Origin: an uncultured Rikenellaceae bacterium
GTDB taxonomy: Bacteria; Bacteroidota; Bacteroidia; Bacteroidales; VadinHA17
Reading direction: 5' to 3'
Assembly: GCA_963696805.1 (NCBI GenBank)
Contig: CAVOLF010000005.1
Coordinates: 302,624-366,623 of the forward strand
Length of the DNA: 64,000 nt
The position numbers and the translations under genes were made by a program. Of the stretch, positions 6,102 through 57,153 are shown piece after piece (the first letter of the stretch is position 1; the number at the start of each line of letters is the position of its first letter). The notes under the pieces were generated by a model that did not search any database, was not told where the DNA came from, and saw only the letters and a program-made list of their open reading frames with translations.

Positions 6102-7823
6102 TTACCATCCGGGATTCTGTACATATACTCCGTTGGAGAGGCGAATTTCGGATTCCGGTACCGGGACCAGTCCTTTTATTTCAGGGCGGTAACTGTTGGT
6201 GTACACAGCGGCAACCCCTGAATTCATGACATTGCAGGGAGTTGAGAAGTAGTTCTTGGTTGGGTTTTCGACATCACCCCATCTTACCAGGTCAAACCAT
6301 CTCTGACCCTCGAATGCCAGCTCATATAGTCTCTCCGACTTGAGGTTATCAAGCGACCAGGCCACTGGAAGAAGTCCTACCCTGGCTCTGACGGCATTTA
6401 TCCCATCTGCAGTCTCGGTAAGTTCGGAATGCATTAGCAGTACTTCCGCATACCTGAGGTAGAAGAAATCCTGTGCAGACTCAAGCTGCATCGGATCGCC
6501 GTTGTTCCAGTTGTAGATATAATAGAACATACCCTTCTTCCCATCGGCGCCTTCGTGCTGCAGGTGTGAGTATTTCTTATTGTACAGACCGGTTTCATGA
6601 TCACCCTTGTTTGCCTGGTATCCGCCGGTACCCTGTTCCGCCTTGCCCATTTCAAGGACTGAGGCGAGTTTCCTCGGGTCATCGTTTGGCCATGAATTGA
6701 AGAATACAGAATGGATCGGTCCCCATCCCCAGCCTTCGGCAAAGGGTATCATTGAATTACCCCTTATTCCGAAGAAGAGAGGAATACGGTTATTGAATTT
6801 CTGACCTTCATTCCATCCCCAGTTCCCGAATGCGAACCTCAGGGCAAACATGACCTCTTTGTTCCCGTTGCCTATCGTTGAGTTCGGGCCATCCTGCCCG
6901 GCCCACGCAAGGTCCTCATCATCAGCCCATGGCAGCACAATGCTGCCGGCGCTGGTGTTTGCATAGGAATAGGGCCACAGATTCCTGAAATCGGATACAA
7001 GTTCGTACTTGCTGTTCGTTATCACATCATTGAGTGCGGCAATTGCATCAGCCTTCGTCAGGTTTGCGCCTTCCGGAAGAGCAAGGTCAGTAGTGGCCTG
7101 TTTCTCGATGTTTGTCATATAACCCGTATAGAACAGGTAGGTGCGGGCGATATATGCCTGTGCCACCCAGCGGTTTGCATGACCGTATTCCGACAGCGGA
7201 ACAGCCAGGGGATTGACAGCCGGCATGGTTTCAGAGGCTTTGATGAAGTCGGCAGCAATCTGTCCGAAGGTCTCGGTAAAGGTTGCACGGGGTACATCGC
7301 GCGGTGAATCCGTTCTGGGGATGATAGGCATTCCTCCGAAGAACCTTGCAGCCCTGTACATGAAGAAGCCCCTCATGAAATAGGCTTCGCCCAGAGCGGT
7401 GTTTTTGAACGCAGTGGCTTCCGCCTCAGTGTTGAAGTAGCTTGAGTAATCAGCCTCCGTGACTGCTTCAATAATTGCATTTGTACGGTATACACCGTTG
7501 TAGGTCTGCTTCCAGAGGTCACTGTAGGTATCCTCTGTCGGGTCAAGGAACTTATCGCAATTCTTTGCTGTTATATCATCCGGACCTCCGCCACCAAGCA
7601 TGTAGTCGGCCATAAGGTTTGCAGAAAGGTGCTCCTCGCTGAACACTCCTCCGACATAGAGGGCATTGTAGACGCCACCCATGGCTTCGGTTATATCAGT
7701 CGGTGTTTTGTAGAAGTTCGTCAGATCTTTCTGATACAGATTCCTTGTATCGAGAAAATCTTCACAGCCGCTTACCATAAGGGCCGTTGCAGCAACTATA
7801 ATTAAGATTAACTTTTTCATCAT
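6102..7823 (-). CDS. susD: RagB/SusD family nutrient-uptake outer membrane lipoprotein
   Basis: Lipobox SGC; GEAYFMRGFFM, LRYAEVLLMHSE, ERLYELAFEGQRWFDLVRWG and QNPGW motifs. Confidence 0.95.
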   Translation of the reverse strand: MMKKLILIIVAATALMVSGCEDFLDTRNLYQKDLTNFYKTPTDITEAMGGVYNALYVGGVFSEEHLSANLMADYMLGGGGPDDITAKNCDKFLDPTEDTYSDLWKQTYNGVYRTNAIIEAVTEADYSSYFNTEAEATAFKNTALGEAYFMRGFFMYRAARFFGGMPIIPRTDSPRDVPRATFTETFGQIAADFIKASETMPAVNPLAVPLSEYGHANRWVAQAYIARTYLFYTGYMTNIEKQATTDLALPEGANLTKADAIAALNDVITNSKYELVSDFRNLWPYSYANTSAGSIVLPWADDEDLAWAGQDGPNSTIGNGNKEVMFALRFAFGNWGWNEGQKFNNRIPLFFGIRGNSMIPFAEGWGWGPIHSVFFNSWPNDDPRKLASVLEMGKAEQGTGGYQANKGDHETGLYNKKYSHLQHEGADGKKGMFYYIYNWNNGDPMQLESAQDFFYLRYAEVLLMHSELTETADGINAVRARVGLLPVAWSLDNLKSERLYELAFEGQRWFDLVRWGDVENPTKNYFSTPCNVMNSGVAAVYTNSYRPEIKGLVPVPESEIRLSNGVYVQNPGW

Positions 7824-7833
7824 TTGGCTTTAT

Positions 7834-10800
7834 TTAAAATGTAACACTCGCACCAAACATAACCGTTCTCGGTAAGGGATAGAGACCCAGGTCAACACCT
7901 GAGGCCCAGCTGTCAGGGGCATAACCTACATCAGGATCCATTCCGTCATACTTTGTGAAGGTATAAAGGTTATTGACAGAAGCATAGATTGATGCACCCT
8001 TGAACCAGTTGAGATTTTTGAGCAGATTGCCAAACCTGTAACCCAGTACCACGTTGCTGATTCTGACAAAGTCGGCATCGTGCATATAGATATCTGAGAT
8101 CAGGTTGATGTTGCGGGTAGAGGCGTAGCCCAGTCTCGGGATTCTGTCTGAGGTACCCTCACCGTGCCAGCGGCCGAATATCTGCGTGGTATAGTTCTGG
8201 GTGAAGTTGTCGGCAAAAGACCTGTATGACTGCATCACCTGCATGCCGAATTTACCGACCAGGGTGGCATTGGCATATATGCCTTTGTACTCTGCATTCA
8301 GCTGAACACCCATCTCAAAATCCGGAAGCGGACTTCCCAGCATTACCTTGTCGTCATCATTGATCAATCCGTCAAGGTTCTGGTCAATGAACTTGACATC
8401 ACCCGGGCGCAGATCCTCGAAATAGGGTTTGCCTTCGGGAGTTAAGTAAGCATCAACATCATTCTGGTTCTGCAGCAGACCGTCTGTCTTCAGTCCGTAG
8501 AAGAATCCGATTGGAAATCCCACCTCAACTCTTGACACGGCAGCAGTTCCCTGTGAAAGGACGTGAGATGATCCGTTTATGATACCTTCAGCATTGGCAA
8601 GGCGGGTTACTTCGTTTTTGTTCATGGTTCCGCTGAATGAGGCGCCGTAAATAAAGTCTGAAACCTCGCCTTTCCAGTTGATAGTGAACTCAATACCGGA
8701 GTTTTTGATGTCACCGCCATTGATCCAGGGAGCGCCTGCTCCTGCTGTTCCAAGTATCGGTGCCAGAACGAGCCAGTCTTTGGTCATCTTGTTATACCAG
8801 TCGAATGACAACCCGAGATTTGAATTGAAGAAGCGGGCGTCAATACCTATGTTAAGCTGCTCAGATGTTTCCCATGTCACATCCGGATTAGGGACGTTTG
8901 CAGGTATTGCCGTAGGTGATGTGACAAGCTTATCAGGTCCGAAATAGTATCCCTGGTCGAGGTAAGAGATGTTTGAGCTGTAGATGAAGTTATCGATGCT
9001 CTGGTTACCGTTCTGTCCCCAGCTCGCACGCAGTTTACCGAAGCTTATCAGGGAGTTGCCTTTCAGGAAGTCTTCCTCAGAGAAGATCCATCCGGCCGAA
9101 GCTGAGGGGAAAAAGCCCCAGCGGTTTCCCTTGGAGAAGTTCGATGATCCGTCAGCGCGGAAGGTGGCATCAAATATGTATTTCTCCCTGAAGTTGTATG
9201 ACAGACGTCCGTAGTATGAGAGCAATCCGCCACCCTGGGCAGCCCAGTCAGCACCCCAGGTATTAATATCGCTGATCTGACCAGCAACCACATTGTCGAG
9301 ATATGCATAATCAGGATTACCGAAGATTGAATTTGCCTTCCAGCCGCCTACATTGGCATTCAGAATATTATCGAGGATCTCATTTCCGGCAAGAACGCTG
9401 ATCTTATGCTCTGCTACTGTGAATTCATAGGAGACCGTGTTTGTCAGGGTAATGTTAATTCCCTGGTACATGTCCTGCTGAACAGCATCATTAGCGTTAT
9501 TGTACTGGGTTGCAAGCTTGTAGGTAGGAGACCAGGATCTATTATTACCAAACCATGAGTTTATACCGAATGATGATCTGATCTTCAGATTCTTAATTGG
9601 CTCCAGGTTAATGTATGCATTGCCGGTAACGGTATTTCCTTTACCCCACTGGAAGTTTGAGCGGTTGTAGAACAGCATTGCCAGCGGGTTGTGCTGACCA
9701 AGCGAGATTCCCTCAAGGGTAGGGGTAAAGCCGTATGGGTCCGGAGACTTATCCCAGTATGCGGGAAGGAGAGGGTTGGTCACAAGGGCATTGTGGAGGT
9801 CGTTCCAGTAGATGTTCCCTGTTCCCAGCCATTTGTTGCGGGTGTTTGTAAGGGTAAAGTTCTCGCCGACGGTAAGAATGTCATGGCTGCTCCCTTTAAC
9901 CAGCACCATTTCCGTGTTCAGACGGGCGGTAAATCTCTTGAATCCTGCGTCTATCAGGTCGCCGCCAAGAATTCCGGACTGATCGAAGTAGGAAACCCCG
10001 AGAGCGTAGATAACATCTTTAGATGAACCTGTAATATTGAGTGAATGGTTCTGAACAGGAGCGTTCTTCATCGACATCTCCTCCACCCAGTCGGTGCCTT
10101 CCCATCCGCTCTGCAGATTTGCCCAGATATCTTCACCCAGTTGTGTACCCAGGTTTCCGGGGAAGTTGGAGTTGATATATGAATTGTTTTTCACCATTGT
10201 CTCCCAGTCATTTGGAGCAAGCCCGTCGTTTGCACGGCCTTCGTCCATGATAAACATGTACTCCTGGGCATTGAGTGCAGGCAGCTTCTTGTAGATGTTC
10301 TGCATCCCGTAGTAGAAATCGTAGGTGATTACAGGGGCAGCGCCTTTCACACCCTTTTTGGTTGTAACAAGAATAACCCCGTTTGCAGCTCTTGATCCGT
10401 ATATTGCCGAAGAGGCCGCATCCTTAAGGACATCGATAGATTCGATATCGGATGCGTTGAGGTAGTCTATGTTTCCGACAGATACACCATCGACGATATA
10501 AAGAGGTGCTGAGTTGCCGATTGTGCCAAGGCCCCTTATTGTGGCCTTTGTCCCTGCACCGGGGGCACCGCTGTTCCTGGTGACACTGATACCGGTTGCA
10601 ATACCCTGCAGTGCTTCCATTGCAGTTGAGGTATTAAGCTCCGCTATCTGATCACCTTTCACATTCAGGTTGGCACCGGTCACCAGCGCCTTTTTCTGAA
10701 CGCCATAACCGATAACCACCACCTCATCAAGGTCGGTAGGCGCATCAGCCATTGTTACATTGACAGTTGCGGATGTTACGGTCACCTCCACCGGGGTCAT

Positions 10801-39985: not shown

Positions 39986-40757
39986 ATGGAATCAAGCGAT
40001 CAGTACAATTTCAGTATTTTCAGTCCACGTAACCGGCATGGCAAGAAGAACAGGAATGTCATCTTCACCATGCTTGCCATATGGGCAGTGGCGGTATTCG
40101 GCTTCCAGATCCTCCTGCGGGTGATTGAGAAGCCTGTACCGGAAAAGTCTCTTACACTGTTTGAAGCAGAGTGGGCAGATGTTACCGGCGGAAACAGTGA
40201 TCAGGCAGATTATCAGACTCTTCTCGGCTCACTCCTGATGGCAAGGGGGAAGATTACGGTTGCGGCAGCTGATCAGCAGCTGCTCTCCGCAGCAATCAGC
40301 AACGTTACATTCACCCTGGTGCCTGATTCTGTAAGGCCTTTGCTCAGTGAGAAGGTTTCGGAGCTTGAGGTTATGCACACTGACATTTCGACCTTAAAGG
40401 GCCAGTCGTATATGGATCTCAAATTCCGCATACAGGACGCCAGCGACGGGGTCATTACAATGCTGGAGCCATTTACAGGATACGGTACAGTCAGTCTTGA
40501 GGCCGCAATTTTGTCTGCGAGCCTGTCAGAAGGTTTATCCTGAGTCTCTTGACGATTCATCATTTGACCGCTTGCCCGGGCGATGAAACTTATATCTTAC
40601 TCATAATCAGTCAGTTCTTACCGATACAAGGTTTCTGGGATTCCCATTCCATTATTTTTATACAGCAGTCTTTCTGCTGATACTGTTTGTGGTACTGTGT
40701 ATAGTATATAATATATTGATAGAGTGGCGATTAAATAAGGAAGGCATTGTTGAATAA
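39986..40757 (+). pseudogene. DUF4212-like membrane partner of the solute symporter; frameshifted as assembled (about 3 single-base indels at 40530-40595)
   Basis: N-terminal RNVIFTMLAIWAVAVFGFQILL; the reading continues in another frame as YLTHNQSVLTDTRFLGFPFHYFYTAVFLLILFVVLCIVYN...IVE* ending at 40757. Confidence 0.72.
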
Positions 40758-40775
40758 GATAATTTGCAGAAAAAA

Positions 40776-42458
40776 ATGAAAAAGTTATATTTCACATTAT
40801 TCTTCGTCTTTTCGGGGATATATTTCATTGAAGTGCACAGAATCTGACCCAACTGGAGGGCAGCTTTAAAACAGGTCCGGCCATAATTCTTATTGCAATC
40901 CTGGTAACATTTGTTCTGGTAGGGATCTTCTTCCGGGCAAAGGATCCGGCTGACTATTATGCTGCCGGCAGGAAGATATCAAGAGTCGGTTCAGGTATGG
41001 CTATTGCATCAAACTGGATGAGTGCTGCTTCGGTGCTGGGCATGGCAGGTATGATGTACGGTTTCGGGTACAACGGTCTGGCTTATGTGGTAGGCTGGAC
41101 AGGAGGTTATGTTTTGCTGCTGATTCTTATGGCTGCCCAGATACGTAAATACGGTAAATATACGGCACCTGATTTTATTGGTGACCGGTATTATTCGCGT
41201 GACCTGAGAATTGTCAGCGCCATTTTTACAATTCTGATTTCATTTGCCTATTGTGTTGGCCAGTTTGGTGGTATAGGCCTGATGTTCAAATGGATTCTGG
41301 GACTTAATTATACCTGGGCAGTAATTATAGGTTCATCGGTGGTCTTGTTATACACTCTGATCTCAGGTATGATCGGAGCAACAAAAAATATGCAGATACA
41401 GTATGTAATTATTGTGATTTCATTTCTGATCCCGGTATTTATAATGGCATTCAAGTTTGATTATTTCTGGCTCTTGCCCCAGATTGGCTATGGTGCAGCC
41501 GTAACTGATATAGTTCAGGGTATCCCTGCCCCCAATATATCGGACGGAGTGGCTCTGCTGAATGCCTACGGACATGATTTTGCAATTGTGCCCAGCCCTG
41601 AATTTGCAATGCCATGGGATCCGTCAACCGGCACAACCTTCTTCCAGTGGATGGCAATCTGTTTTTCGCTGATGGTAGGCACTGCAGGACTGCCTCATGT
41701 GATTCAGCGCTTTTATGTGGTTCCGAAAGTAACTGATGCACAGATGGTCAGTTGTATGGGGTCTGTTCTTTATTTGTCTTGTATACTGGACAGCCCCTGC
41801 ATATTCAACATTCGGCAAGCTCCTCTCTTCAAATCCCGAGGTCGGGGTCCTGGCCAAGGATGCAATTGTGGTTTATACTGCTCAGCTTGGAGGTGTCAAC
41901 TCACTTGATCGTTGGATTACTGGCGGCCGGAGCGATTTCTGCAGCTTTTTCAACCGTTTCAGGCCTTCTTGTGGCCGGAGCATCAGCCTTTTCGCACGAT
42001 CTTTATGTGAAGGTTATTAACCCCTCCTCCACCCCCAAGCAGCAGCTGAAGATTGCCAGGATAGGTACGGTTATCATGGCCTTGCTGTTACTATTGTTGC
42101 TCTCATGAAGCTGGGGCTTATAGCACAGCTTGTTTCCGTCGCATTTTCAATGGCCGCCTGTACGATTTTTCCTCTGTTCCTCCTTGGAATCTGGTGGAGC
42201 GGGTCAAACCGGGCAGGGGCAAAGGCCGGGTTGTTTGCCGGAAGTCTTGTCACGGTCATATCACTGACCTATTTTATCGTTGGCCTAAGCGGAGGCAGCC
42301 TTCCGGGGCAGGCCTTTATCTCATACTGGCTGAATGTGTGGTATTTCGCATGGATCGGTGCACCACTGGCAATAGTTGTAAATATTGTTGTTTCAAAATT
42401 TACCAAACCCACTCCTCTTGAAATCAAGAAGTTTCTCGCAGAGCAGGTGCATAATTGA
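40776..42458 (+). pseudogene. Sodium:solute symporter, ActP (cation/acetate)-like; frameshifted as assembled (about 5 indels)
   Basis: DYYAAGRKI, GMAIASNWMSAAS.LG, GWTGGY, YGKYTAPDFIGDRY, GTAGLPHVIQRFY, AGAISAAFSTVSGLL, FSHDLY; the fragments join across four ORFs. Confidence 0.88.
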
Positions 42459-43234
42459 TGAGTTTAAAGGATCTGATAGTTATATCTCCAGGTACAAGGA
42501 AAATTCTGGCGATCACCATTTCGGTCGCAGTGCTGGCAGTAATTTTTGCTTTCTTCTATTACCGCTCGGTAAACAGGTCAGCTGACCCTCGGGTTGCGGA
42601 AGCCCGCAGATATATGTCCGAATATGACAGGGTGGCCGGCGGAACGGACAGCTATACCTGGTTTCATCTCCTCGATTCTGCCGGCCTGGTTTATCAGAGT
42701 GTTCCCGGTTACATGACCTCATGGGAGAACGGTGTGATCTATAACAACAAGTGCAGCGGACTGTTACTGATGGCCTTGTATGACAGCACAATGACAGAAC
42801 CTGAGAAGGAGAGCCTCCTGGAACTATCGGTCACATACTGTGACAGCAGCATTGCAGTTTATAAGCGGTGGCTGGATGAATGGGGAGAACTGCCTGATGA
42901 GGAGGTTGCCAGGCGCGTGAATGATGAAATGAATGAAAACGACGTTGCATTTGCCGGGCTTAACTACAGAAGAATATCCGGAAAGAGGGTCAGCGATATA
43001 ATGCTGGCCCGCATTGAAACGCCCAGAAGGCTCTCCGTGAGCTACACCAACAAGGCCACGGCATACCGCCATCTGATGATGCAGGACTCGGCACTTGTCT
43101 ATTATAACAGGGCTCTCACACTGTGGAAGGATAACCGGACGGCAGAGAGCAACCTTAGCGTACTCCTCGGAGGCGAGCCGGTGAAACCGGGTCTCATAAA
43201 GACTCTTTTTCCGCCTGACAGAAAGAAAAAATGA
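42458..43234 (+). CDS. Membrane-anchored TPR-like protein
   Basis: N-terminal TM segment; SVSYTNKATAYRH...ALVYYNRALTLW.DN.TAESNL; TGATG overlap with the symporter stop. Confidence 0.75.
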   Translation: MSLKDLIVISPGTRKILAITISVAVLAVIFAFFYYRSVNRSADPRVAEARRYMSEYDRVAGGTDSYTWFHLLDSAGLVYQSVPGYMTSWENGVIYNNKCSGLLLMALYDSTMTEPEKESLLELSVTYCDSSIAVYKRWLDEWGELPDEEVARRVNDEMNENDVAFAGLNYRRISGKRVSDIMLARIETPRRLSVSYTNKATAYRHLMMQDSALVYYNRALTLWKDNRTAESNLSVLLGGEPVKPGLIKTLFPPDRKKK

Positions 43235-43293
43235 GAACCATGTATAACTTTATCCGTTAGTCTGGTTGTAAACAGTAACTAAAGCAAGTTAAT

Positions 43294-44532
43294 ATGAAAA
43301 GGGCAACTGTTCTGATTATTGCATTTATTTTAACCGTGGTTAAGATTGGGGCACAGGATGCCGAAAAGAATTATGGCATTAAATTCTCCGGGTTCGTAAA
43401 GACAGATATTTTTTATGACTCCAGGCAGTCATCCGCCTCCAACGGACTGAGGGAAGGGCACTTTTTCCTCTATCCGGATGATGTGCTGTATGATGAGGAC
43501 ATGAATGATCTTAATGCCAATCCATCTTTTCATATTCTAAACATACAGACAAGGATACGCGGTGACATAACCGGGCCTGATGCTTTCGGAGCAAAGACTT
43601 CGGGTGCGATTGAAGCCGAGTTTTTTGGTACCAGTGATAGTGACCTGAACGGGTTCAGACTCCGCCATGCTTATGTAAAGATGGATTGGCAGAAGTTCAG
43701 TCTGCTTGCCGGACAGTACTGGCATCCTATGTTTCCTGCCGAGAATTTCCCGGGAACAGTAAGCTTCAATACCGGGGTTCCATTTCTTCCGTTCAGCCGT
43801 AACCCGCAGGTCAGGCTCGTATGGTTTCCGGGCAAAGTAAGCTTTACCCTTACGGCATACTCGCAGCGCGACTTCACCTCATCAGGGCCTGACGGCAACA
43901 GCAGCAAGTATCTGAGAAACAGCGGTACGCCGGGGATGCATCTCCAGGTAAAGATGCCTGCTGGAGAATACCTGACCGCCTGGGCCGGGGCAGATTGGAA
44001 GACGATCAGGCCTGAGATCAGGACCCCGGCAAATATCGAAACCAGTACCAGAGTGGGCAGCATAGCCGCTTTTGCCGGTTTGAAAATCAAAACCAAACCC
44101 CTGAACTTATCCGTTATGGGAACATACGGAGAGAATGCCAGTGACATGATGATGATTGGCGGTTATGCCGTGTCTCAAATAACAGATCCGGTTGATCAGC
44201 TCAAAGAATGGACAACGCTGAACACTGCGGGATTCTGGATTGATCTGAGCACCAATGGTAAGAGAGCAGTTGCCGGTCTTTTTTCGGGCTACAGCAAAAA
44301 TCTCGGTTCGCGGGAAACCGTTATGGGCAATGTGTACGGCCGGGGCAGCAATATTGACCACCTGTTCCGGGTATCTCCGAGGTTAACGATCACCGAGGGA
44401 AAGCTGAGCATTGCGGCGGAGCTTGAGAGCACTCTTGCAGCCTACGGAACCATGGAAGGTGACGGCAGGGTGTCAGATACCCGTAATGTCACAAATGTGC
44501 GTCTGCTGGTCAGTCTGATATACCGGTTTTAG
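43294..44532 (+). CDS. DcaP-like outer membrane porin
   Basis: Signal peptide; FSGFVKTDIFYDSR, IEAEFFG, FRLRHAYV, LLAGQYW, RNPQVRL; C-terminal YRF. Confidence 0.78.
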   Translation: MKRATVLIIAFILTVVKIGAQDAEKNYGIKFSGFVKTDIFYDSRQSSASNGLREGHFFLYPDDVLYDEDMNDLNANPSFHILNIQTRIRGDITGPDAFGAKTSGAIEAEFFGTSDSDLNGFRLRHAYVKMDWQKFSLLAGQYWHPMFPAENFPGTVSFNTGVPFLPFSRNPQVRLVWFPGKVSFTLTAYSQRDFTSSGPDGNSSKYLRNSGTPGMHLQVKMPAGEYLTAWAGADWKTIRPEIRTPANIETSTRVGSIAAFAGLKIKTKPLNLSVMGTYGENASDMMMIGGYAVSQITDPVDQLKEWTTLNTAGFWIDLSTNGKRAVAGLFSGYSKNLGSRETVMGNVYGRGSNIDHLFRVSPRLTITEGKLSIAAELESTLAAYGTMEGDGRVSDTRNVTNVRLLVSLIYRF

Positions 44533-47390
44533 ATGGTAACGGAATGGAAATCATTCCCCGCCTTAAGAACAAGGTTATTTATATCGTCTATTGCCCTGGC
44601 AGCCAGGAATTGCATATCTGCGTACCTTACCCTGAAATCAACCTTGTTATCCGGTTCCCGGCCGCTGTTAATGCATGATGCCTGATGCGAAAGACGAATG
44701 TATGCAAGGTCTTTCCATACTCTCAGCGCATCTCGGAGAAGCTCCGGGCTGATATGTTTTCCCGCATGCAGCTCAAGTATCCTGTCAACCGTTGAGAGAC
44801 CCTCAAGTCCGTGTTTCAGGGAATAAAGGCGAATTACCCCTGTGAGCGGCATAAGCAGTCTCTTGATATCGGTTGTCTCTTCGGAAAGGACTGAATGTGA
44901 GGGATTGAATTGTTTCAGTGCCATCGACATATGGTAGAAGAAGATGTCGCTTGTCTGAAGGCTTGTTTTTACATATTCCCTCAGTTCATTGCTGAGAGCA
45001 ACATCTCCGTAACAGAACCTGAAGTCGAAAAATATGCTGACGTCAAGTATCTCTGAAGGGCCGGGCATCCTTATCCAGTCTGAGAAGTAGCCCTTCCATC
45101 TGTCGATCGGCTGGCACCATTTCGGGTTACCTGCCATGTTGTTTCCCTTGCAAAGATGGAATCCGACAGTGTCAAGCATGTCATTTATTCTTTTCCCCAG
45201 TGAAAGGAAGTATTCTGACGCTTTTTTCAGCCCCTCTCCATCGAGGTTTTCGTAGATAATGGCATTATCCTGGTCTGTAAGAAAGCTTTGTTCCCTGCGG
45301 CCGGCGCTGCCTGTCTGGATAAAGGCAAAACTGCACGGGGGTTTACCTGCAGCCTCTATGCAAAGATCAACCACTCTGGCACATATGGCGTCGGCGATGG
45401 AAGAGATGTGCACCATCAGCGAGTGAGGGTCTGCATGGCCGGGCACCATTGCCAGGGTTGCCTTATGACTGTCGTGATATATCTTTTTGAGGCTGATGGC
45501 CGAGCCTGCACAGGCTATATCATTCATGATCAAACCCGGGGCTACGGAAGAGGCATATGCAAGCTCCGCATTTGTTATCATACCTGTAAGCTTGCCGTCA
45601 GCGGTTACTACAAGGAGGCATCCGGTTGTGCTGTTCCTGATTTTCTCCATAGCTGCGGCTACTTTTGCATCTTCCCTGATAAATAGGGGTGGTGCCTGCA
45701 TGAACCTGAAAATCTCGGTGACGGGCGGAGCGCCCTCAGCTATCGCGGAGCCTATACTGCCGGCATCAGCCACGCCCATGGCATCATCCGAACTGTTCAG
45801 GACTATTATGATGCCGGTTTTAGCCTCCTTCATAAGTGATACAGCTCTTGTAAGGGGGGTATTTTCGGGGCAGGTGAGAGGGGGTTTCATTATGGCTGAA
45901 ACGGGTGCTCCGGTGATGTATGAGGAACCAAAGGCGTCATTACCCGAAAGAGGGAGTGCCGAACCAGAAGAGGAGGCAGACAGGTATTCAATGCTTCCGT
46001 CATACCATTTCTCATCAGTGCCGTTATCGGTAAAGATGACGGTCACAAGAGTCCAGACCCCGGTGCCATTCTTCCTCCTGAGAAGCACCTCCATGTTGGA
46101 TATGTTACGGCCGTTTCCGAGCGCGTGCCTGATATGCTCGAACTGGTGGGGATCAGCAAACAATGCTTCAAGGTTTTGCTGATGAAGTTCCTTCAGGTCA
46201 GAGTACCCGATAATATTCAGTGCCGGGGCGGTTGCATGGATGAATTTCGGTTTTTTCCCGTATGTGATCCGGAAAAACCCTGTTGCCGCACTCTCAAGGA
46301 GTGATGCGGGCAACTGCAGGCCGGAAGCTGAAGACAGGCTGTGGGCGGGCCTGACAACGATAAGCACCCCCTGCCGGTCGCCAAAAGTGATCCTCGACAG
46401 ATCGGTATGACAGGAGATCTGCCTTCCGGTGCTGGTTTTAAGCGTGCACTCGACATATTGCCTGGTGGTCAGTTCTTCATACAATTTCCCGGGACTATCA
46501 GGATCAATGATCGCTTGTGAGCTAAGGATTTCTGAGATGGGCCGGTCAAGGATCTCCTCCCCGGTGAACCCGATCCATGAAAGTAAAGTTTTATTGGCCT
46601 GCAATCCCTGATCGGACCATATTATCACCCCTTCGGAGGCAGCCTCGGCAAGTGTTCTGTAGAGTTCCCTAGATTTACGGAGCTCCTCTTCGGCCCGGCT
46701 TCTCTTCTGTTCTATTTTATGGCTCTGCCTCGAAATTGCAAACAAAAGGGCGAAAATGACGAGGCCAAAGACCCCGGATATGGCAAGAGCCTTGATCTCC
46801 ATACTCCGTATCTCTGTACGGACATCTTCAATATATATGCCTGTGCCGATGACCCATCCCCATGGCTCGAACAGCCTGACATAGGACAGTTTGGGAACAA
46901 TACGGGTAGAGTCGTCATTCCATTGCCACATATACTCAACATAACTCTCACCGTTGTCAGCGACGGCCTTTACAAATTCAACAAAGATGGCCTTGCCCCC
47001 GGAGTCATGAAAATCTGTCAGATCCTGCCCGTTAAGATCAGGCCGGTAGGGGTGAGCAATCATTACCGGATGCCTGTCAGTGATCCAGAAATAGTCTTTC
47101 AGGTCGTCACCATACCTTATCGTGTTGATAGCGGCCCTGGCCTGATCCTGTGCTTCCGGCCCCTCAAGCGCACCGCCTTTTTCAAGCGAGTGGTAGTGCT
47201 CCAGAAGACTGTAAGCTGAAGCGGTCATTTCATGAATAAGGATTCTTTTCCGATCCATCATGACCTTTTCAAAGCCCGGGATCAGGTAGAGGAAGATCAT
47301 TCCGGCAAAGAGTATTACAGCTGACAGTGCCGGAAGGTCTATCTTAAGCAGGAACAGCTTTCTCTTTCCTTTTGCAGGGGTCTCTTTCAT
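44529..47390 (-). CDS. Membrane sensor nucleotidyltransferase: TM-sCache_2-TM-PAS-PAS-CBS-CBS-DUF294/DUF294_C
   Basis: Cache: YFWI...MIAHP...KLSYVRLFEPWGWVIGTGIY; PAS-like: YRTLAEAASEGVII and LRRKNGTGVW; CBS: VSAIM...GMIT..EL; NTase: GSAGRREQSFLTDQDNAIIY, CKGNNMAGNPKWC, SIFFDFR, DIK...IRLYSL. Confidence 0.88.
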   Translation of the reverse strand: MKETPAKGKRKLFLLKIDLPALSAVILFAGMIFLYLIPGFEKVMMDRKRILIHEMTASAYSLLEHYHSLEKGGALEGPEAQDQARAAINTIRYGDDLKDYFWITDRHPVMIAHPYRPDLNGQDLTDFHDSGGKAIFVEFVKAVADNGESYVEYMWQWNDDSTRIVPKLSYVRLFEPWGWVIGTGIYIEDVRTEIRSMEIKALAISGVFGLVIFALLFAISRQSHKIEQKRSRAEEELRKSRELYRTLAEAASEGVIIWSDQGLQANKTLLSWIGFTGEEILDRPISEILSSQAIIDPDSPGKLYEELTTRQYVECTLKTSTGRQISCHTDLSRITFGDRQGVLIVVRPAHSLSSASGLQLPASLLESAATGFFRITYGKKPKFIHATAPALNIIGYSDLKELHQQNLEALFADPHQFEHIRHALGNGRNISNMEVLLRRKNGTGVWTLVTVIFTDNGTDEKWYDGSIEYLSASSSGSALPLSGNDAFGSSYITGAPVSAIMKPPLTCPENTPLTRAVSLMKEAKTGIIIVLNSSDDAMGVADAGSIGSAIAEGAPPVTEIFRFMQAPPLFIREDAKVAAAMEKIRNSTTGCLLVVTADGKLTGMITNAELAYASSVAPGLIMNDIACAGSAISLKKIYHDSHKATLAMVPGHADPHSLMVHISSIADAICARVVDLCIEAAGKPPCSFAFIQTGSAGRREQSFLTDQDNAIIYENLDGEGLKKASEYFLSLGKRINDMLDTVGFHLCKGNNMAGNPKWCQPIDRWKGYFSDWIRMPGPSEILDVSIFFDFRFCYGDVALSNELREYVKTSLQTSDIFFYHMSMALKQFNPSHSVLSEETTDIKRLLMPLTGVIRLYSLKHGLEGLSTVDRILELHAGKHISPELLRDALRVWKDLAYIRLSHQASCINSGREPDNKVDFRVRYADMQFLAARAIDDINNLVLKAGNDFHSVTI

Positions 47391-47399
47391 AATCTTGCA

Positions 47400-48170
47400 C
47401 TAAGTGACTTTTTCATGCATCAGGTTTAACATCCTTGTGTCAGTGTCGATTACCGAAAATGAGGTTCTTCCGTTGCCTCCCGTCACCGGGGGCAGCAAAA
47501 TCATTGTCATCTCGTGCCCCAGGTAGATCCTGTCGTTCGGGACAGGATGAATAGCGCGCAGGAAGGAGAAAGGCCTGCGGTGCGAAAAGTATGCGAATGG
47601 TTTGTGTGAATGGCCTGACAGTGAGAAGTTTATGCCGTGATGGCTCATGAACTTCCACAGCTCACTTACATGATGCTGCTTTTCGACATACCTGGTAGTG
47701 GAGCCGGTGAAATCGGGGCATATGTAATGCGAAAGAAGAAGGTTTAGCCCGTTCTCGGATATAATGTCATATTCAGGGATTGCATTCAGGTAATCCATAT
47801 CCTCATCTCCCAGGTCATTCGGGTCTTCGCCGTCAAATGACCAGACGAGTCCCCGGGAGTCATTTCTTCTTTCTGAAGGAGACATTTGAAACCAGTTTTC
47901 AGGGTATTTGAAACCGTTTGACCAGGCGGGAAGCCTCATTGCCGCAAAAAGGTCATGGTTACCGGCCACCACCCAGCGGCATGATGACCTTATGAGAGAA
48001 ATGCACTGCCTGGCACTTCTCTGAAAGTGATAGTTATAGAATCTCCGGTCATACCCTGAGATATCACCAAGGCAGGCGAGCTCATCACACCGCTGCGAAT
48101 CCGCCATCTTCAGGACAGCCTCCAGCATTGTCACGTTTTCGTGGATGTCAGTGATTAATCCGATCTTCAT
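47400..48170 (-). CDS. Calcineurin-like metallophosphoesterase (YfcE-like)
   Basis: TDIHEN, LGDISGY, AGNHD and SGHSH motifs. Confidence 0.9.
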   Translation of the reverse strand: MKIGLITDIHENVTMLEAVLKMADSQRCDELACLGDISGYDRRFYNYHFQRSARQCISLIRSSCRWVVAGNHDLFAAMRLPAWSNGFKYPENWFQMSPSERRNDSRGLVWSFDGEDPNDLGDEDMDYLNAIPEYDIISENGLNLLLSHYICPDFTGSTTRYVEKQHHVSELWKFMSHHGINFSLSGHSHKPFAYFSHRRPFSFLRAIHPVPNDRIYLGHEMTMILLPPVTGGNGRTSFSVIDTDTRMLNLMHEKVT

Positions 48171-48207: not shown

Positions 48208-49233
48208 TTAACTCCTTTTAAGTTTCCACATGAAGTAAACTACCAGAGCCAGGAGAAGAAGAGTAATAATGACCGCCCAGTAGTTGATATCATGCGATTT
48301 GGCGTACATGATATAATCTTCAGTCAGGAAATGGTTGCCGGTGACGGGCCAGGCCAAAGTCCCGTCACTCATCATATAGCCGTTTGTAGATTTTAAATCA
48401 GCAGGCATGACCATCTGCATGGTATAGCTTTCAAACAACCATGAGTTATCGAACTTCCTGTTGAATATGGCTGCGGCACTGTCAAGTTCAGGTTTGAATC
48501 TTACATAGAGGCTATCACCCAGAACTGCGGAACATAACACATCAAGATCTCCATCTTCGCCTACAAGTTTGTAAAGTTCATTCTCATGCGATCTCAGGAT
48601 AGCAGAAGTGAGAGAGTCCTTGCCGGAAGATTCGCAAAGGGCGCCGGCATCCTCTATGAATTCGGAAATAAGTGATCTCATCATCCATTGTTCGGTGTGA
48701 AGCTGTATCGAATCAATCAGGTTCCTGTACTTAAGGCTGTCCGGCCCAATGACTAACTCATCGCTTATCTTTTTGGGGAGGTTACTGAAAGTGATCTCTT
48801 CCTTTGTAAGGTAGTCGGTGAGCGGATATCCGTGCAGGAGGTTTTTATCAACTTTTTCAGCAAAATACCAGGTTGTGGTAAACCATTTGAATTTCCGTTT
48901 GAAGATTGCGGACCTGTTTACAGAGCTGTTTTTTCCCGTATCGGTCAGGTATGCTTCATTGATGGCATCAGCCGACCCGAAATGTTTGTCAGCAAAGAGA
49001 ATCCATGTTGTGTCGCCTTCCGCAGATATGATAATAGTATCCCTAAGGCTCCAGGAGCTGTCCACAGGTACTGTGAAATCGGCAAGATTAAGTTTGTCTT
49101 GTGTGTATCTCAATTCTGCCTTTCTTACAACGGAGCCGTTTCTGCCGACTATGTTGGTGACTGTTGTTTCCGGACCCTCACAGGAGATGAATGCCATGAG
49201 AAGGACCAGTGACATGGATATTTTTCTTTTCAT
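48208..49233 (-). CDS. Hypothetical lipoprotein with a C-terminal transmembrane anchor
   Basis: MKRKISMSLVLLMAFISC lipobox; C-terminal WAVIITLLLLALVVYFMWKLKRS. Confidence 0.7.
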   Translation of the reverse strand: MKRKISMSLVLLMAFISCEGPETTVTNIVGRNGSVVRKAELRYTQDKLNLADFTVPVDSSWSLRDTIIISAEGDTTWILFADKHFGSADAINEAYLTDTGKNSSVNRSAIFKRKFKWFTTTWYFAEKVDKNLLHGYPLTDYLTKEEITFSNLPKKISDELVIGPDSLKYRNLIDSIQLHTEQWMMRSLISEFIEDAGALCESSGKDSLTSAILRSHENELYKLVGEDGDLDVLCSAVLGDSLYVRFKPELDSAAAIFNRKFDNSWLFESYTMQMVMPADLKSTNGYMMSDGTLAWPVTGNHFLTEDYIMYAKSHDINYWAVIITLLLLALVVYFMWKLKRS

Positions 49234-49382
49234 ACCTGTTGATTGTGCCTCCTTCTGCACCATTATCAATGACCAAGTTACGGAGATTTGACTGATTTGG
49301 CAGCAATTCAACCCATAAAGTCCTGAAAATTGGGAATATTAGTATAATTGTGAAGTTATTTTCATCCTGAGAAATATTTTCC

Positions 49383-49762
49383 ATGGAGACCAATTACTCT
49401 GACTTCTGTCATGCAGGGGCAAGCTACAAGGTTGAATACTCTGCCCTTCCGACAGGCGTGGAGCTTCTGACCGTCACTTTCACACCGCCTGAACCGCTTG
49501 ATGCTCCGCCGGTTTTATTTATTCCGGGGCTGCCCGGGTAATTTCCGTACCGGCCCTGCTGGTGGTTGCCTCAAAGGACAGGTTCCACAGCCATGACGAG
49601 GGTATGGAGATAGCACGGCAGATAAAGGGTGCCGTTCACACTGACCTTACCGACAACAAAAGGACCCACAGCGCAGAGATGGGCCGTATAATCAGTGATT
49701 TTATTTCTTCTCCGGAACAAAGACCATCTCAAGCAGGTCAGCTTTGGCAAGGTATTTCTTAA
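49383..49762 (+). pseudogene. Alpha/beta hydrolase remnant with a large internal deletion
   Basis: METNY...LPTGVELL...PPVLFIPGL (N-terminal strand) joins out of frame to ISVPALLVVASKD.FH...IARQIKGA...H...IISDFI (C-terminal part); no nucleophile elbow between them. Confidence 0.6.
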
Positions 49763-52504
49763 CAAGCTTTTTCATATCCCTGACCGTAAGCTTGTTAAGT
49801 ATGCCGGCAAAATTCCTTTCGTCATTGTTGTCAATGCCATAGACATAATAACTGGTAACTTTGCCTGCCCAGTAGCTGTTATGCTGCTTCTCTTCCTCTC
49901 GGTTTTTGAGCATGTTACTGACCGCCTTTTCAAGATTCACCTGTGAGGGTCCGTTGGAGGCAATTTCCTGAAGTTCCCGGTAGATTATTCCTTTCAGTTC
50001 TGAAGCTCTTGCAGGGTCGCATTCAAATGTAATGAGCAGGTTAGCCTTTTCAACAGGTCTCTTGTAAGATGTTGCATCGTGCTGACACTGTAAGTTCCTC
50101 CCTCATCCTCGCGCACTTTTTCAGTATATACCAGGTCAAGTATAGCCTTCAGTACATCCATCATCAGGTTATTCTTCGGGTTAAAACTGAGTTCAGAAGA
50201 ATAATTCATGAGCACTCTTGCCTTCGGGACGGTAAGCGGTACAGGGATCTCTTTCCTGGCAGTTCCGGCAGGCTGTTTAACCCCGTTGTCCTTCCAGGTC
50301 TCAGGCAGGTACTTTGAAGGAAGTGAACCGATATATATTTCAGCCATCCTGAGCGCCTCCGATTCTTCCACGTTGCCTGTAAGTACGAATGTAAAGGCCG
50401 ATGCGTCATCAAATGCCGTTTCATAAACGTGATTTACATTTTCATAGCTGATCAGCTTCATTGTTTCAGGGGTCATGATGAAGGTGCGGGGGTGGTATCC
50501 TGTCATGTTCATGGAAAGAGAGTCGGAGATTATCTTGTTCGGGTTTTTCTGCATTGCAGTAACCACGGCAATATAGCGTCCGATGATGGCGTCATAGGCT
50601 TCCCGGTTGTAGTTTGGCCGTGCAAAACGGAGGTAGAGCAGCTGCATCATGGTCTCAAAGTCCTTCGGTGTGGAGGAGCCGGATATAGTCTGCATTGTCT
50701 CCTGCAAGCCCAGTGAGACGGAGGCTTTCTTGCCTGCCAGCATCTTTGTCAGGGCGACGTTGTCAAACTCGCCAGCACCGTACATTGAGACAATCAGCGG
50801 GAAGAGCGTAACTGACGGTACAAGAGAGTCCGGATAGACTGATGATCCTCCGAAGGCATAGCCTGTTATCGTCACATTGTCCTTTTCATAGTCGGCGTGC
50901 CGGAATACCACCCTGGCACCGTTTGAAAGAGTCCACTCCGTGGCACTGAACTGCGGCAGTGCAACACTCTTTATCATCTTTGAACCGGGGAGGGTTTCAC
51001 CGATAAGATCAGCTCCGCCTGTTATATCTTCATACGGGGTGATATCAGCATTTTGCACCTTGCTGAAAAGAGCCAATGCCTCCTTTTCGGAAAGATGTTC
51101 CCTGTCGTCCGGCCCCTGTACAACTATGAAGCTGTTGTTGTCAGAAACAAGGCCTTTCAGTCTTTCCGTCACCTCGGCAAGTGTAATTTGCGGAAGGATC
51201 TGCTTGTAGTAATCATATTGCAGATCAAGTGACGGGATAGGTTCCCCTGTAAGGAAATGGTCAGTTATCTGTGAAGCCCAGCTGTCATTGCTGATCTTGT
51301 CCTTTTGCTTGTACCTGTTCTCGAAATTGGCAAGCATAGTTGCTTTAGCCCGTTCCAGTTCGCCTTTGGTAAAGCCGTGCCTCTGTACTCTTTCAAGTTC
51401 TGTCAGGGCTGCCTCAAAAGCCTTGCTCTCTTCGTCATTGCGGACCAGGGCCGAGAGGGTCAGGGCATTATAGTCTCTGGCGAGGAATGAACCGTAGCTG
51501 AGTGATCCGTTTATGAAAGGCGGTGTTCCCTTCTGTACAATCTCGCTGAAACGGTTGCTCATCATACTGTTCATCAGGGCAATGACATAGCCGTCACGGA
51601 TGTAGTCCATATCCCTTGGGACAGTGTCAGGGTGAGTATCTATCGTAATAAGGCTTACCGATGTCTGTGATGCTTCAGGATCAGTCAGCAGCAGATACCG
51701 GGTACCTGATTTCGGGACAAGCCGGTTTACTGGTCTGGTGATCGGGTTTTCTACTGCCGGTATTGGCGAGAAGATCTCCATGATCTTTTCTTCCACAGCA
51801 TCAAGATCAACATCCCCCACCACTACTATCGCCTGAAGGTCAGTCCGGTACCAATCGTGGTAAAAATCGCGCAGCGTTTCATGGGAGAAGTTTTTAATAA
51901 CCGCGGTATCGCCGATGATATCTCTCACAGCATACTTTGATCCTTCAAATAGCACCGGCAGCATCTGTGTCATCATCCTCCATGAGGCATCGCGTCTTGT
52001 TCGCCACTCTTCTATGATTACACCCCTCTCTTTATTGATCTCCTCTTCCGAGAGGGCAAGGAAGTCAGACCAGTCGGCAAGGATCATCAGGCAGCTGTCT
52101 ATCAATCCGGGTTTATTAACGGGCACATCGCTGAGGTTGTAGACGGTCTCGTCCCAGCTTGTGTAGGCATTTATATTCTGACCGAAAGCCACGCCATGAC
52201 GTTCAAGGGTGTTCAGGACACCCTTGCCGGGGAAGCGCTTCGTACCGTTGAAGGCCATATGCTCAAGGAAATGAGCCAGACCGTTCTGGTCGTCATTTTC
52301 AAGAATGGCTCCCACATTCTGGATGATGTAATAACTGGCCCTTCCGGCAGGCTCGGTATTATGCCTGATGTACCAGGTAAGGCCGTTGTCAAGTTTGCCA
52401 ATGCGGTAGGCCGGGTCAACCGCGATGGTTTTGTCAGTTATGGTCTGAGGGGTTGCGGACAGTGATGCGGCAACAAGCAATGAGAGAACGAGAAATCTTT
52501 TCAT
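49701..52504 (-). CDS. M16 family zinc peptidase (PqqL-like), one frameshift near 50078
   Basis: GKLDNGLTWYI, GLAHFLEHMAFNGT, NAYTSWDETVY, ERGVIIEEWR, VREDEGGTY; the frame resumes as DATSYKRPVEKANLLITFECDP... into ORF 49701-49940. Confidence 0.9.
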
Positions 52505-55758: not shown

Positions 55759-57153
55759 ATGGATTCAAGATCAAAGGATCAGCTCCTCATTCGCATCGCG
55801 CGGCTTGCACGTCAGAACAAGGAGCTTGACGAGCAGGTGAAGAAACTTGAAAGGGAGAAGGAGAAGATCCTGGAAATGAACGAAAAATACAGGCTTCTCC
55901 TTGAAAGGAACGAGCTTCCCGGTACAAAGACGGTTGAGGAGGAGAAGTCGTTCAGGTATAACATGGTCACGGTCCTCTTTGCCGATATTCATGGTTTTTC
56001 AAGGCTTGTGGAGGATATGGACTCTGCCCGTGTGATGGATGAGCTTGATGAGATCTTTTTCGAGTTCGATAAGGTTATCGGGAAATATCATGTAGAAAAG
56101 ATAAGGACCATCGGTGACACTCTGATGTGTGCCGGCGGTATACCGGCGAAGAACATAACCAACCCGGTTGAGGTTGTCATGGCTGCAGTTGAGCTGAGAC
56201 ATTTCATGAAGGAATATGAAGCCGTGAAGAGGGTTGATGAAAGGATCTGGAATCTGAAGGTAGGCATTCACACAGGCCCTGTCACTGCTTCCATTTCAGG
56301 GAAAAACAAGGTGTCATACGACATCAAGGGTCGCGCCGTCAACACTGCAAGCCGGATAGAAGCCGTCTCGGATAAGGATTCGATCCTTATATCTGTAATG
56401 ACCTATGAGCTTGTAAAGGAGTTCTTCATCTGTGAGTATTTCGGTAAACTGCCCGTTAAATATACCGGCAGCATCCAGATGTACCAGGTAAAGGGTCTGT
56501 TGCCGGCCTTGTCCGTTGACGGAATGGGTGTAATGCCGAATGAGGCGTTCAGGATCAAGTTCGGACTTATACAGTTCACAGATATACAGGAAGTTATCCT
56601 TGATAAGCTTGAGAAGGAGTTGCCTGATTTCCTCTTTTATCACAATGTGAAGCACACTGTTGATGTTGTGACGGAGGTTGAGCTGATTGGATGGGCCGAA
56701 GGGTGTAACGATGAAGAGATACTGTTGCTGAAGACTGCTGCACTGTTCCATGATGCCGGGCATACGGTGTCATATGACGATCATGAGTACCAGGGTACCC
56801 TGCTGGCCCGGGAGATGCTGCCCGGATACGGATATACCGAGGAGCAGATTGACCGTCTATGCAGGATCATCATGTCTACCAAGCTGCCGCCCATGCCCAC
56901 CGACCTGCTGGAACAGATCATCTGTGATTCCGATCTTGATTACCTTGGACGAAGCGACTTCATTCCCGTATCAAATACTCTTTTTGAAGAGTTGAAGGCT
57001 CAGAATAAGATCACCAGACTGAATGACTGGAACAGGATGCAGGTGAAGTTCATTTCTGGTCACCAGTATTTCACTGCCACCGCCCGAAGTCTACGGGAGG
57101 TGAACAAAAAGTTGCAGATAGAGCGTATCCAAAGCCTGATAACGACAGACTGA
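55759..57153 (+). CDS. Cytoplasmic coiled-coil + class III nucleotide cyclase + HD phosphohydrolase fusion
   Basis: VTVLFADIHGFS, EKIRTIGD, VGIHTGPV, VNTASRIE; HD domain YHNVKHT...AALFHDAGH...HE...IICDSDLDYLG. Confidence 0.88.
   Translation: MDSRSKDQLLIRIARLARQNKELDEQVKKLEREKEKILEMNEKYRLLLERNELPGTKTVEEEKSFRYNMVTVLFADIHGFSRLVEDMDSARVMDELDEIFFEFDKVIGKYHVEKIRTIGDTLMCAGGIPAKNITNPVEVVMAAVELRHFMKEYEAVKRVDERIWNLKVGIHTGPVTASISGKNKVSYDIKGRAVNTASRIEAVSDKDSILISVMTYELVKEFFICEYFGKLPVKYTGSIQMYQVKGLLPALSVDGMGVMPNEAFRIKFGLIQFTDIQEVILDKLEKELPDFLFYHNVKHTVDVVTEVELIGWAEGCNDEEILLLKTAALFHDAGHTVSYDDHEYQGTLLAREMLPGYGYTEEQIDRLCRIIMSTKLPPMPTDLLEQIICDSDLDYLGRSDFIPVSNTLFEELKAQNKITRLNDWNRMQVKFISGHQYFTATARSLREVNKKLQIERIQSLITTD

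Follow-up and report, generated by a model that had tools for sequence, protein, structure and literature searches.

A Cache-sensor DUF294 protein co-inherited with a phosphoesterase and a symporter in Bacteroidales: a candidate carboxylate-gated nucleotidylation system

The window analysed here is a stretch of 64,000 nucleotides from an uncultured Rikenellaceae bacterium (contig CAVOLF010000005.1 of GCA_963696805.1), and all coordinates below are positions within it. It carries a block of six genes, in which a forward-strand run of four transport-related genes (39986–44532) converges on a reverse-strand pair (48170–44529), namely a metallophosphoesterase and a large membrane sensor that ends in a DUF294 nucleotidyltransferase (NTase) module (Table 1). 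Close homologues are annotated as Bacteroidales proteins. The block is real and conserved, and the gene order and strands given in an earlier reading of the same DNA, referred to here as the original prediction, are borne out by the window sequence. The same is true of its finer details: the TAG of the porin gene (44530–44532, +) overlaps the TAA of the sensor gene (44529–44531, −), the phosphoesterase and sensor genes lie nine nucleotides apart (47400 to 47390), and the ATG of the TPR gene overlaps the symporter stop at 42458, in agreement with the translational coupling proposed.

Table 1. Features of the six-gene block (window positions; aa, amino acids; TM, transmembrane helix)
Feature	Position	Strand	Basis
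Enlarged DUF4212 symporter small subunit	39986..40757	+	PF13937 on both pieces; frameshifted; 256 aa in relatives
VC_2705-family sodium:solute symporter	40776..42458	+	TIGR03648 best for every scoring piece; frameshifted; 559 aa in relatives
Membrane-anchored TPR-like protein	42458..43234	+	TPR_1 at 195–226, E 7.7e-5, under cut-off; one TM, 16–34
Outer-membrane protein	43294..44532	+	Signal peptide, C-terminal Phe, weak 6EUS profile match
Membrane sensor, candidate writer, 953 aa	44529..47390	−	TM-sCache_2-TM-PAS-PAS-CBS-CBS-DUF294-DUF294_C; Pfam, AlphaFold models, fold matches
sCache_2 domain	46800..47258	−	Residues 45–197; pocket Y100, W102, H113, Y153, W155, K167
DUF294 + DUF294_C nucleotidyltransferase module	44634..45464	−	G694, S695, R698, E700, D706, D708 invariant
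Calcineurin-like metallophosphoesterase, candidate eraser	47400..48170	−	PF00149, E 9e-13; 256 aa; 9 nucleotides upstream of sensor

The sensor and the phosphoesterase

The domain order of the sensor, up to DUF294, had been read from the sequence at the outset, and a Pfam scan together with the hydrophobic helices confirms it. The sCache_2 domain (PF17200, E 8e-38; 130 bits against a cut-off of 25) is flanked by transmembrane helices at residues 19–37 and 201–219, and is followed by PAS domains at 243–348 and 384–458, two CBS domains, DUF294 at 643–778 (E 1.5e-38) and DUF294_C at 836–919. Its closest entries in the PDB are 4K08 (E 1e-34) and 5G4Y (E 3e-33), then 4EXO, and the model of the domain reaches a TM-score of 0.91–0.93 against the first two. 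The six ligand residues of pyruvate-bound 4EXO align with the six pocket residues of Table 1, all of which are unchanged in 57/57 Cache-type homologues and agree with the Y-W-(H/L)-Y-(W/F)-K pattern of sCache_2 carboxylate sensors. The pyruvate contacts of 4EXO are defined in the accessible part of PMC12415202, where His or Leu at one position selects pyruvate or L-lactate; by that rule, His rather than Leu at position 113 favours pyruvate over L-lactate. To judge from its sequence, the domain likely binds a short carboxylate of the pyruvate, acetate or propionate type. In identity (37–38%), TM-score (about 0.9) and complete pocket it resembles the sCache_2 sensors PscD (5G4Y), Adeh_3718 (4K08) and 4EXO, as well as the MctS and CtpM models, but it is joined to a nucleotidyltransferase, where those sensors have a chemoreceptor or histidine kinase domain as output.

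The NTase motif reported for the DUF294 part is indeed intact (G694-S695-x-G697-R698-x-E700...D706-Q707-D708), and its G694-S695...D706-x-D708 core matches hG[GS]x9-13Dx[DE], the metal-binding motif of the GlnD/GlnE-type pol-beta nucleotidyltransferase fold. The six residues given for this module in Table 1 are invariant in 65/65 aligned homologues, the catalytic GS/DxD motif is held in 57/57 Cache-type homologues, and E700 and D789 are invariant candidates for the third catalytic carboxylate. A model of residues 615–953 (predicted local distance difference test score 95) contains both the NTase core and a C-terminal helical bundle. Its best fold matches by VIA are GlnE 1V4A (Z 27.6), GlnE 3K7D (Z 26.4) and DrrA 6YX5 (Z 25.6), over about 300 residues and with a root-mean-square deviation of 2.9–3.7 Å; the two GlnE entries represent its N- and C-terminal domains, and the next entry falls to Z 13.4. 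Foldseek at E ≤ 0.001 gave only four matches, three chains of GlnE and DrrA. The oligo-adenylate synthase HalB scores Z 7.1 and aminoglycoside NTases at most Z 9.4. A PDB sequence search with the CBS–DUF294 part found CBS domains only. In the available text of PMC3710099, DUF294_C is grouped with the C-terminal domains of GlnD and GlnE. From its model, the module is thus predicted to share the fold of enzymes that attach adenosine monophosphate (AMP) to proteins.

The comparison with GlnE and GlnD (glutamine synthetase adenylyltransferase and PII uridylyltransferase) and with DrrA extends to the predicted two-domain arrangement of NTase and helical bundle, to the GS...DxD motif and to the pairing of a writer with a remover, and the module may work like GlnE/GlnD. 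Unlike these enzymes, the sensor has a single NTase module and no ACT or HD domain, it is membrane-bound with an external sensor, and its putative remover is encoded separately and can be exchanged for others. The genome also encodes acetate kinase, a PII gene and glutamine synthetases, none of them linked to the locus. The genome's only PII-family match (G000:C7:164889-165191) carries an in-frame TGA.

The metallophosphoesterase was correctly named. Besides its PF00149 match, it contains D8-x-H10, GD36, GNHD, H148 and GHSH, in accordance with DxH, GD, GNH[DE], H and GHxH, the full set of calcineurin-like metal ligands. These ligands are conserved across 39 homologues, and the closest solved structure is 3RQZ (E 1e-10). 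In one metatranscriptome, six short contigs cover the sensor and phosphoesterase genes at a depth of 2–5; DNA carry-over is possible, and they are not counted as expression. Promoter-like sites (22 against 12.7 ± 3.4 in shuffled sequences; the sigma-70 model is unfit for this lineage) and a terminator scan (11 against 9.1) were set aside.

Two further genes of the window lie on the same strand as this pair. The first (48208–49311, −) encodes a 367-residue lipoprotein-like protein with a C-terminal transmembrane helix and no Pfam or NCBIfam match; tblastn places its gene before that of the phosphoesterase, on the upstream side, in 9/16 loci of the genus, and it was not seen in other families. 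Further on (55759–57153, −), inspection of the sequence suggests a fusion of an adenylate/guanylate cyclase with an HD domain, another pairing of a synthase with a hydrolase.

Transport genes and their reading frames

The symporter was originally labelled ActP-like, and this label has to be replaced. Intact relatives score 496–498 bits on TIGR03648, the VC_2705 family (cut-off 320.75), and have the DUF4212/TIGR03647 subunit upstream, whereas on the ActP models TIGR02711 and NF006903 an intact relative reaches 175 and 201 bits against cut-offs of 1099 and 750. The broken piece in the window still scores 308.6 bits on TIGR03648. Acetate import by ActP, on which the original prediction leaned, is therefore not directly applicable to this VC_2705/DUF4212 symporter. 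VC_2705/DUF4212 symporters tested so far serve the use of D,L-lactate and D-alanine, according to the part of 10.1101/072470 available, and the substrate here is likely a C2–C3 carboxylate. The small subunit consists of a transmembrane helix, an insert of about 160 residues and a second transmembrane helix (alignment of 22 homologues), the insert being likely periplasmic; an intact relative scores 46 bits on PF13937 (cut-off 30) and also matches TIGR03647. The passing of TIGR03648 and TIGR03647 by intact relatives and the same gene order link the locus to known VC_2705/DUF4212 systems, from which it differs in a small subunit of about 250 instead of about 80 residues, followed by the anchored TPR-like protein and the DcaP-like porin.

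The TPR-like protein, likely periplasmic, accompanies the enlarged DUF4212 subunit in 17/17 loci of the order, and its look-alikes in a protein atlas are unnamed Bacteroidota clusters. Its role as an obligatory subunit was considered and rejected, as it is absent beside the enlarged DUF4212 in three loci of a wider set (L156, L157, L198). The porin has no Pfam or NCBIfam match. Its assignment as DcaP-like stands as a weak relatedness: a profile of 21 homologues finds 6EUS at E 3.8e-7, and the match spans only about 140 of 412 positions (63–200). It is likely of the DcaP type. Acinetobacter porins of this type are required for the use of di- and tricarboxylates, as stated in the portion of 10.1101/2025.07.02.662759 consulted. 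Together, the porin, the TPR-like protein and the enlarged subunit would form a route across the envelope.

Both the DUF4212 gene and the symporter gene are frameshifted in the window, which the original prediction did not mention. Compared with three relatives, about ten single-base insertions or deletions (indels) are spread over the two genes, near 40525, 40550–40589, 40820–40833, 41742, 41906 and 42086. These breaks most likely represent errors of sequencing or assembly. In 10 relatives of the genus the symporter gene forms a single open frame of 559–563 residues, and two others are broken elsewhere in the gene. Ten of the indels are absent from short-read contigs of two to four runs, which are mostly 92–96% alike to the window rather than identical to it. 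Frame-changing indels relative to a close relative occur in 27/172 genes of this assembly; the 24 of these genes that were scanned include purL (six indels), sdhA (five), sdhB, coxA, mnmG and uvrC. A frameshift close to the 3′ end interrupts a neighbouring M16-type peptidase-like gene (49701–52504, −), which in relatives is one frame of 934 residues; this break is likely an error of the same kind. It is very improbable that the uptake genes are true pseudogenes of a decaying system. Such decay would account for so many indels in two adjacent genes, and no single contig examined combined near-identity to the window with coverage of every break, but it accommodates poorly the indels in genes such as purL, sdhA, mnmG and uvrC, their absence from the short-read contigs and the intactness of the other four genes of the locus. 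The sensor and phosphoesterase genes show zero indels against near-identical contigs from four runs.

Inheritance of the block

The original prediction had named loss of co-occurrence in other genomes as a result that would speak against it, and co-occurrence is clear within both the genus and the order. The full sensor is present in 16/36 other genomes of the genus, two weak partial matches being left out of the count. All six genes are found in the same order in 11/16 of these loci; the remaining five run into contig ends and show no rearrangement. The symporter occurs in 14/16 sensor-positive and 0/20 sensor-negative genomes. This tracking indicates that the block is gained or lost as a whole.

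A strong DUF294 match is present in 65 of the 301 genomes compared within the order, and 56 have the form with a Cache domain (one of the 56 presumed from frame length; weak partial matches in G248 and G325 were dropped). An ActP/VC_2705-type symporter accompanies 52/56 Cache-form genomes and 16/245 others, with four candidates per genome scored. These counts are indicative, since they come from incomplete genomes that share ancestry and from a symporter profile made with genes found beside the sensor; Fisher P values are overstated by this kinship, so that the counts alone are used. The 55 Cache-form loci of other families, observed over 2.5–20 kb around the sensor and often cut by contig ends, contain the symporter in 29, the porin in 20, the enlarged DUF4212 with the TPR protein in 17, a DUF485 gene in 12 and a Crp-family gene in eight. 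No further neighbour family recurs in more than 5/66 loci. Since the genome studied here holds seven sodium:solute symporter family loci in 3.57 Mb, a symporter in 29/55 loci places the adjacency beyond chance.

A wider scan, covering 5 of 64 parts of a genome collection and calling each slot by its own profiles, gave 72 loci, 57 of them with a Cache domain; 36/57 have the symporter and 31/57 a calcineurin-like gene. The hosts include Bacteroidota, Ignavibacteria, Chlorobiaceae, deltaproteobacteria, Actinomycetota, Armatimonadetes and Lentisphaeria. The symporter slot is occupied by a VC_2705-type protein (with DUF4212), an ActP-like protein of 630–650 residues (with DUF485) or an ActP-like protein of 515 residues. 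In a quick tree built from the NTase domain the symporter type switches several times, and the link to the sensor survives the exchange. Two loci (L081 and L094, in G068 and G204) carry two complete modules in tandem, in which the VC_2705/DUF4212/TPR set with its sensor is followed by the DUF485/ActP-like set, the phosphoesterase and a second sensor; they could be useful for studying the specificity of writer and transporter.

The hydrolase slot is likewise exchangeable. The calcineurin-like gene occurs in 44/55 Cache-form loci and in 0/9 soluble or truncated loci, 7/9 of which have a DEDDh gene. Elsewhere the slot is filled by a PHP gene (L078, L169, L217), by a PHP domain fused to the sensor (L181, L188, L208) or by a fused DEDDh domain (L088), and the calcineurin-like genes themselves fall into two distant families, 19% alike over 75 columns. 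What is kept would thus be the function of each slot rather than a particular gene, as expected of a writer, an eraser and a target. In the L088 protein (6585–10034, +; 1150 residues), a DEDDh exonuclease-like domain is fused with the Cache-PAS-CBS-DUF294 sensor, which connects the receptor form with the classical RNase T partner. In two deltaproteobacterial records (L177, L189), the sensor is followed by a calcineurin-like gene and then by a second Cache protein. In the cultured strain Desulfobacter latus (L192:3055-12102), a large RNase T-domain gene adjoins several Cache/DUF294 frames, with no symporter within the 16 kb examined. Four soluble cNMP-CBS-DUF294 proteins (L064, L073, L076, L079) form a clade among the Cache forms on the quick tree and have a DEDDh family of their own; no ActP/VC_2705-type symporter was found in their four genomes, and a change of target is possible. 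In the genome studied here, a search with one DEDDh neighbour protein as query gave no match at E 1e-8.

The module is real and widespread, and it is a variant of the uncharacterised COG2905-plus-hydrolase systems, which themselves have no assigned chemistry. COG2905 proteins (cNMP-CBS-CBS-DUF294-DUF294_C, such as Pseudomonas putida PP_0354 and P. fluorescens Pflu5625) are encoded next to an RNase T/DEDDh gene (PP_0353 in P. putida) and beside actP/yjcH or DUF4212 symporters. The module shares with them the CBS pair followed by DUF294 and DUF294_C with the same motif, a phosphodiesterase-type neighbour and the linkage to an ActP/VC_2705-type symporter. It is not COG2905 proper, because it has neither the cyclic nucleotide (cNMP) domain nor a DEDDh partner: TM-sCache_2-TM-PAS-PAS replaces the former, making the protein a membrane receptor without a PF00027 match (soluble forms in other genomes do match PF00027), and the hydrolase is calcineurin-like (PF00149). 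Unlike COG2905 surroundings, the window locus also has no CrbS/MxtR-type kinase. No account of a Cache-DUF294 receptor was found in the literature covered, most subscription journals lying outside that coverage. The analysis establishes the anatomy, the completeness of the pocket and of the catalytic motifs, the GlnE/DrrA-like predicted fold, and the fact that the candidate writer, the hydrolase and the symporter are inherited together.

The proposed switch and its alternatives

The arrangement may be a carboxylate-gated switch in which reversible AMP tagging controls the importer. A C2–C3 carboxylate in the periplasm would bind the Cache domain and signal through the TM-PAS-PAS stalk, with no kinase involved. 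The cytoplasmic DUF294 module would attach a nucleotide, probably AMP, to the adjoining symporter and shut it, the phosphoesterase would remove the tag, and the CBS pair would add an input of adenylate charge to the writer. External substrate may quiet the writer, so that the importer is active only when import is possible; this direction is a guess that could fall either way. The ligand, the chemistry, the symporter as target and the "off" meaning of the tagged state are what we infer, and the switch as a whole, with a tag that silences the symporter and a phosphoesterase that reverses it, is favoured with a little less than even confidence. The pocket, the protein-NTase fold and the interchangeable hydrolase slot fit the writer and eraser of the nucleotidylation circuit first proposed. 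In this assembly both transporter genes are broken. The partial text of PMC9927547 adds that growth of P. putida on pyruvate is impaired by loss of PP_0353 or actP-I and not of PP_0354, as would be seen if tagging switched the transporter off. DUF4212 symporters, moreover, show cofitness with an RNase T domain protein encoded nearby, in the available part of 10.1101/072470.

Several observations weigh against this switch. The NTase module is just 11–14% identical to GlnE and DrrA, fold alone leaves the substrate unfixed, and no activity is reported for any DUF294 protein in the literature found. Co-inheritance would follow equally from control of expression. The symporter is missing from 4/56 Cache-form genomes and from 6/9 genomes with only soluble or truncated forms, and 13/68 symporter genomes lack DUF294. 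A calcineurin-like neighbour is wanting in 11/55 Cache-form loci, 9 of which have no other hydrolase found. A universal target tyrosine also fails to emerge: Y313 in the R-F-Y-V-V-P loop of the symporter, invariant in 44/44 symporters paired with Cache sensors in the first set and Phe in three paired with soluble forms, is Phe in the Ignavibacteria loci L158, L171 and L174, which carry a Cache sensor and the same phosphoesterase, and is therefore dropped as a universal site. Finally, on propionate the deletion of PP_0353 or PP_0354 slows growth and that of actP-I does not, in the part of 10.64898/2026.09.07.749794 at hand; this suggests that the target is a different one or that there is a further one.

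These propionate phenotypes speak for the same writer and eraser acting on a different protein, for example a carboxylate-metabolising enzyme or the Crp/Fnr-family regulator encoded beside some of these loci. The Crp-family gene in 8/55 Cache-form loci agrees with such a target, as do the soluble forms, whose genomes have acetyl-CoA synthetase in 6/9 and lack the symporter in 6/9. However, acetyl-CoA synthetase shows no association with the Cache form (7/56 genomes against 64/245 others) and was rejected as its target. In the genome studied here, which is 93% complete, acetyl-CoA synthetase was not found, nor any PF16177 or PF01144 match; no Crp gene adjoins the locus, and the rarity of other recurrent neighbours leaves few further candidates. 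A different protein target is therefore considered unlikely, though not negligible. A similar, rather low probability is given to a nucleic-acid tag or small nucleotide (a tag on the 3′ end of RNA, an oligo-adenylate or a dinucleotide) as the product, through which the uptake operon would be regulated at the level of expression and which the hydrolase would degrade. DEDDh/RNase T, PHP and calcineurin-like enzymes each include members that act on nucleotides or RNA, and a PHP neighbour gave RNase RNM-like matches. Control of symporter expression was speculated on by Price et al. in 10.1101/072470, where the cofit "COG2905 (RNase T domain protein)" encoded near DUF4212 symporters is suggested to be needed for expression, and mRNA decay was speculated on by Henriquez et al. 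Against a nucleotide product, the three top folds are all protein nucleotidylation enzymes and stand far above HalB and the aminoglycoside NTases; moreover, tyrosine-AMP is a phosphodiester with a free 3′-OH that a 3′–5′ exonuclease could presumably cut as well.

The receptor could instead regulate the transporter by binding alone, with an NTase site that only binds nucleotide and a phosphoesterase in a separate role. Regulation of this kind is known from LysP/CadC and GlnK/AmtB. The sensor and the symporter sit in the same membrane and are inherited together, 9/55 loci have no hydrolase neighbour, and the third catalytic carboxylate is known only through the candidates E700 and D789. The invariance of the catalytic residues in 65/65 homologues and the unrelated hydrolase folds that occupy one slot, two of them fused to the sensor, make binding alone quite improbable. 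The reversible tagging of the symporter is the reading retained here. Its extension to a class of one-component receptors with an NTase output, in which an external carboxylate leads to an AMPylated secondary transporter and several unrelated phosphodiesterases reverse the tag in many phyla, is offered more tentatively, as a possibility on the doubtful side; such a class would also account for the long-unassigned pairs of DUF294/COG2905 and RNase T proteins.

For decades, annotations of DUF294/COG2905 proteins have named no substrate, and their knockouts give weak and puzzling phenotypes; for Pflu5625, the part of PMC5715377 consulted describes no phenotype and predicts nucleotidylation of proteins. 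Unlike the soluble form, the receptor form supplies a predictable C2–C3 carboxylate ligand, a short list of targets headed by the symporter of 52/56 genomes, and a partner hydrolase. If the proposal is correct, nucleotidyl transfer would join the outputs of membrane receptors, and a bacterial secondary transporter would be gated by a reversible AMP tag. Such a switch would bear on how anaerobes of sediments and digesters share acetate, pyruvate, propionate and lactate.

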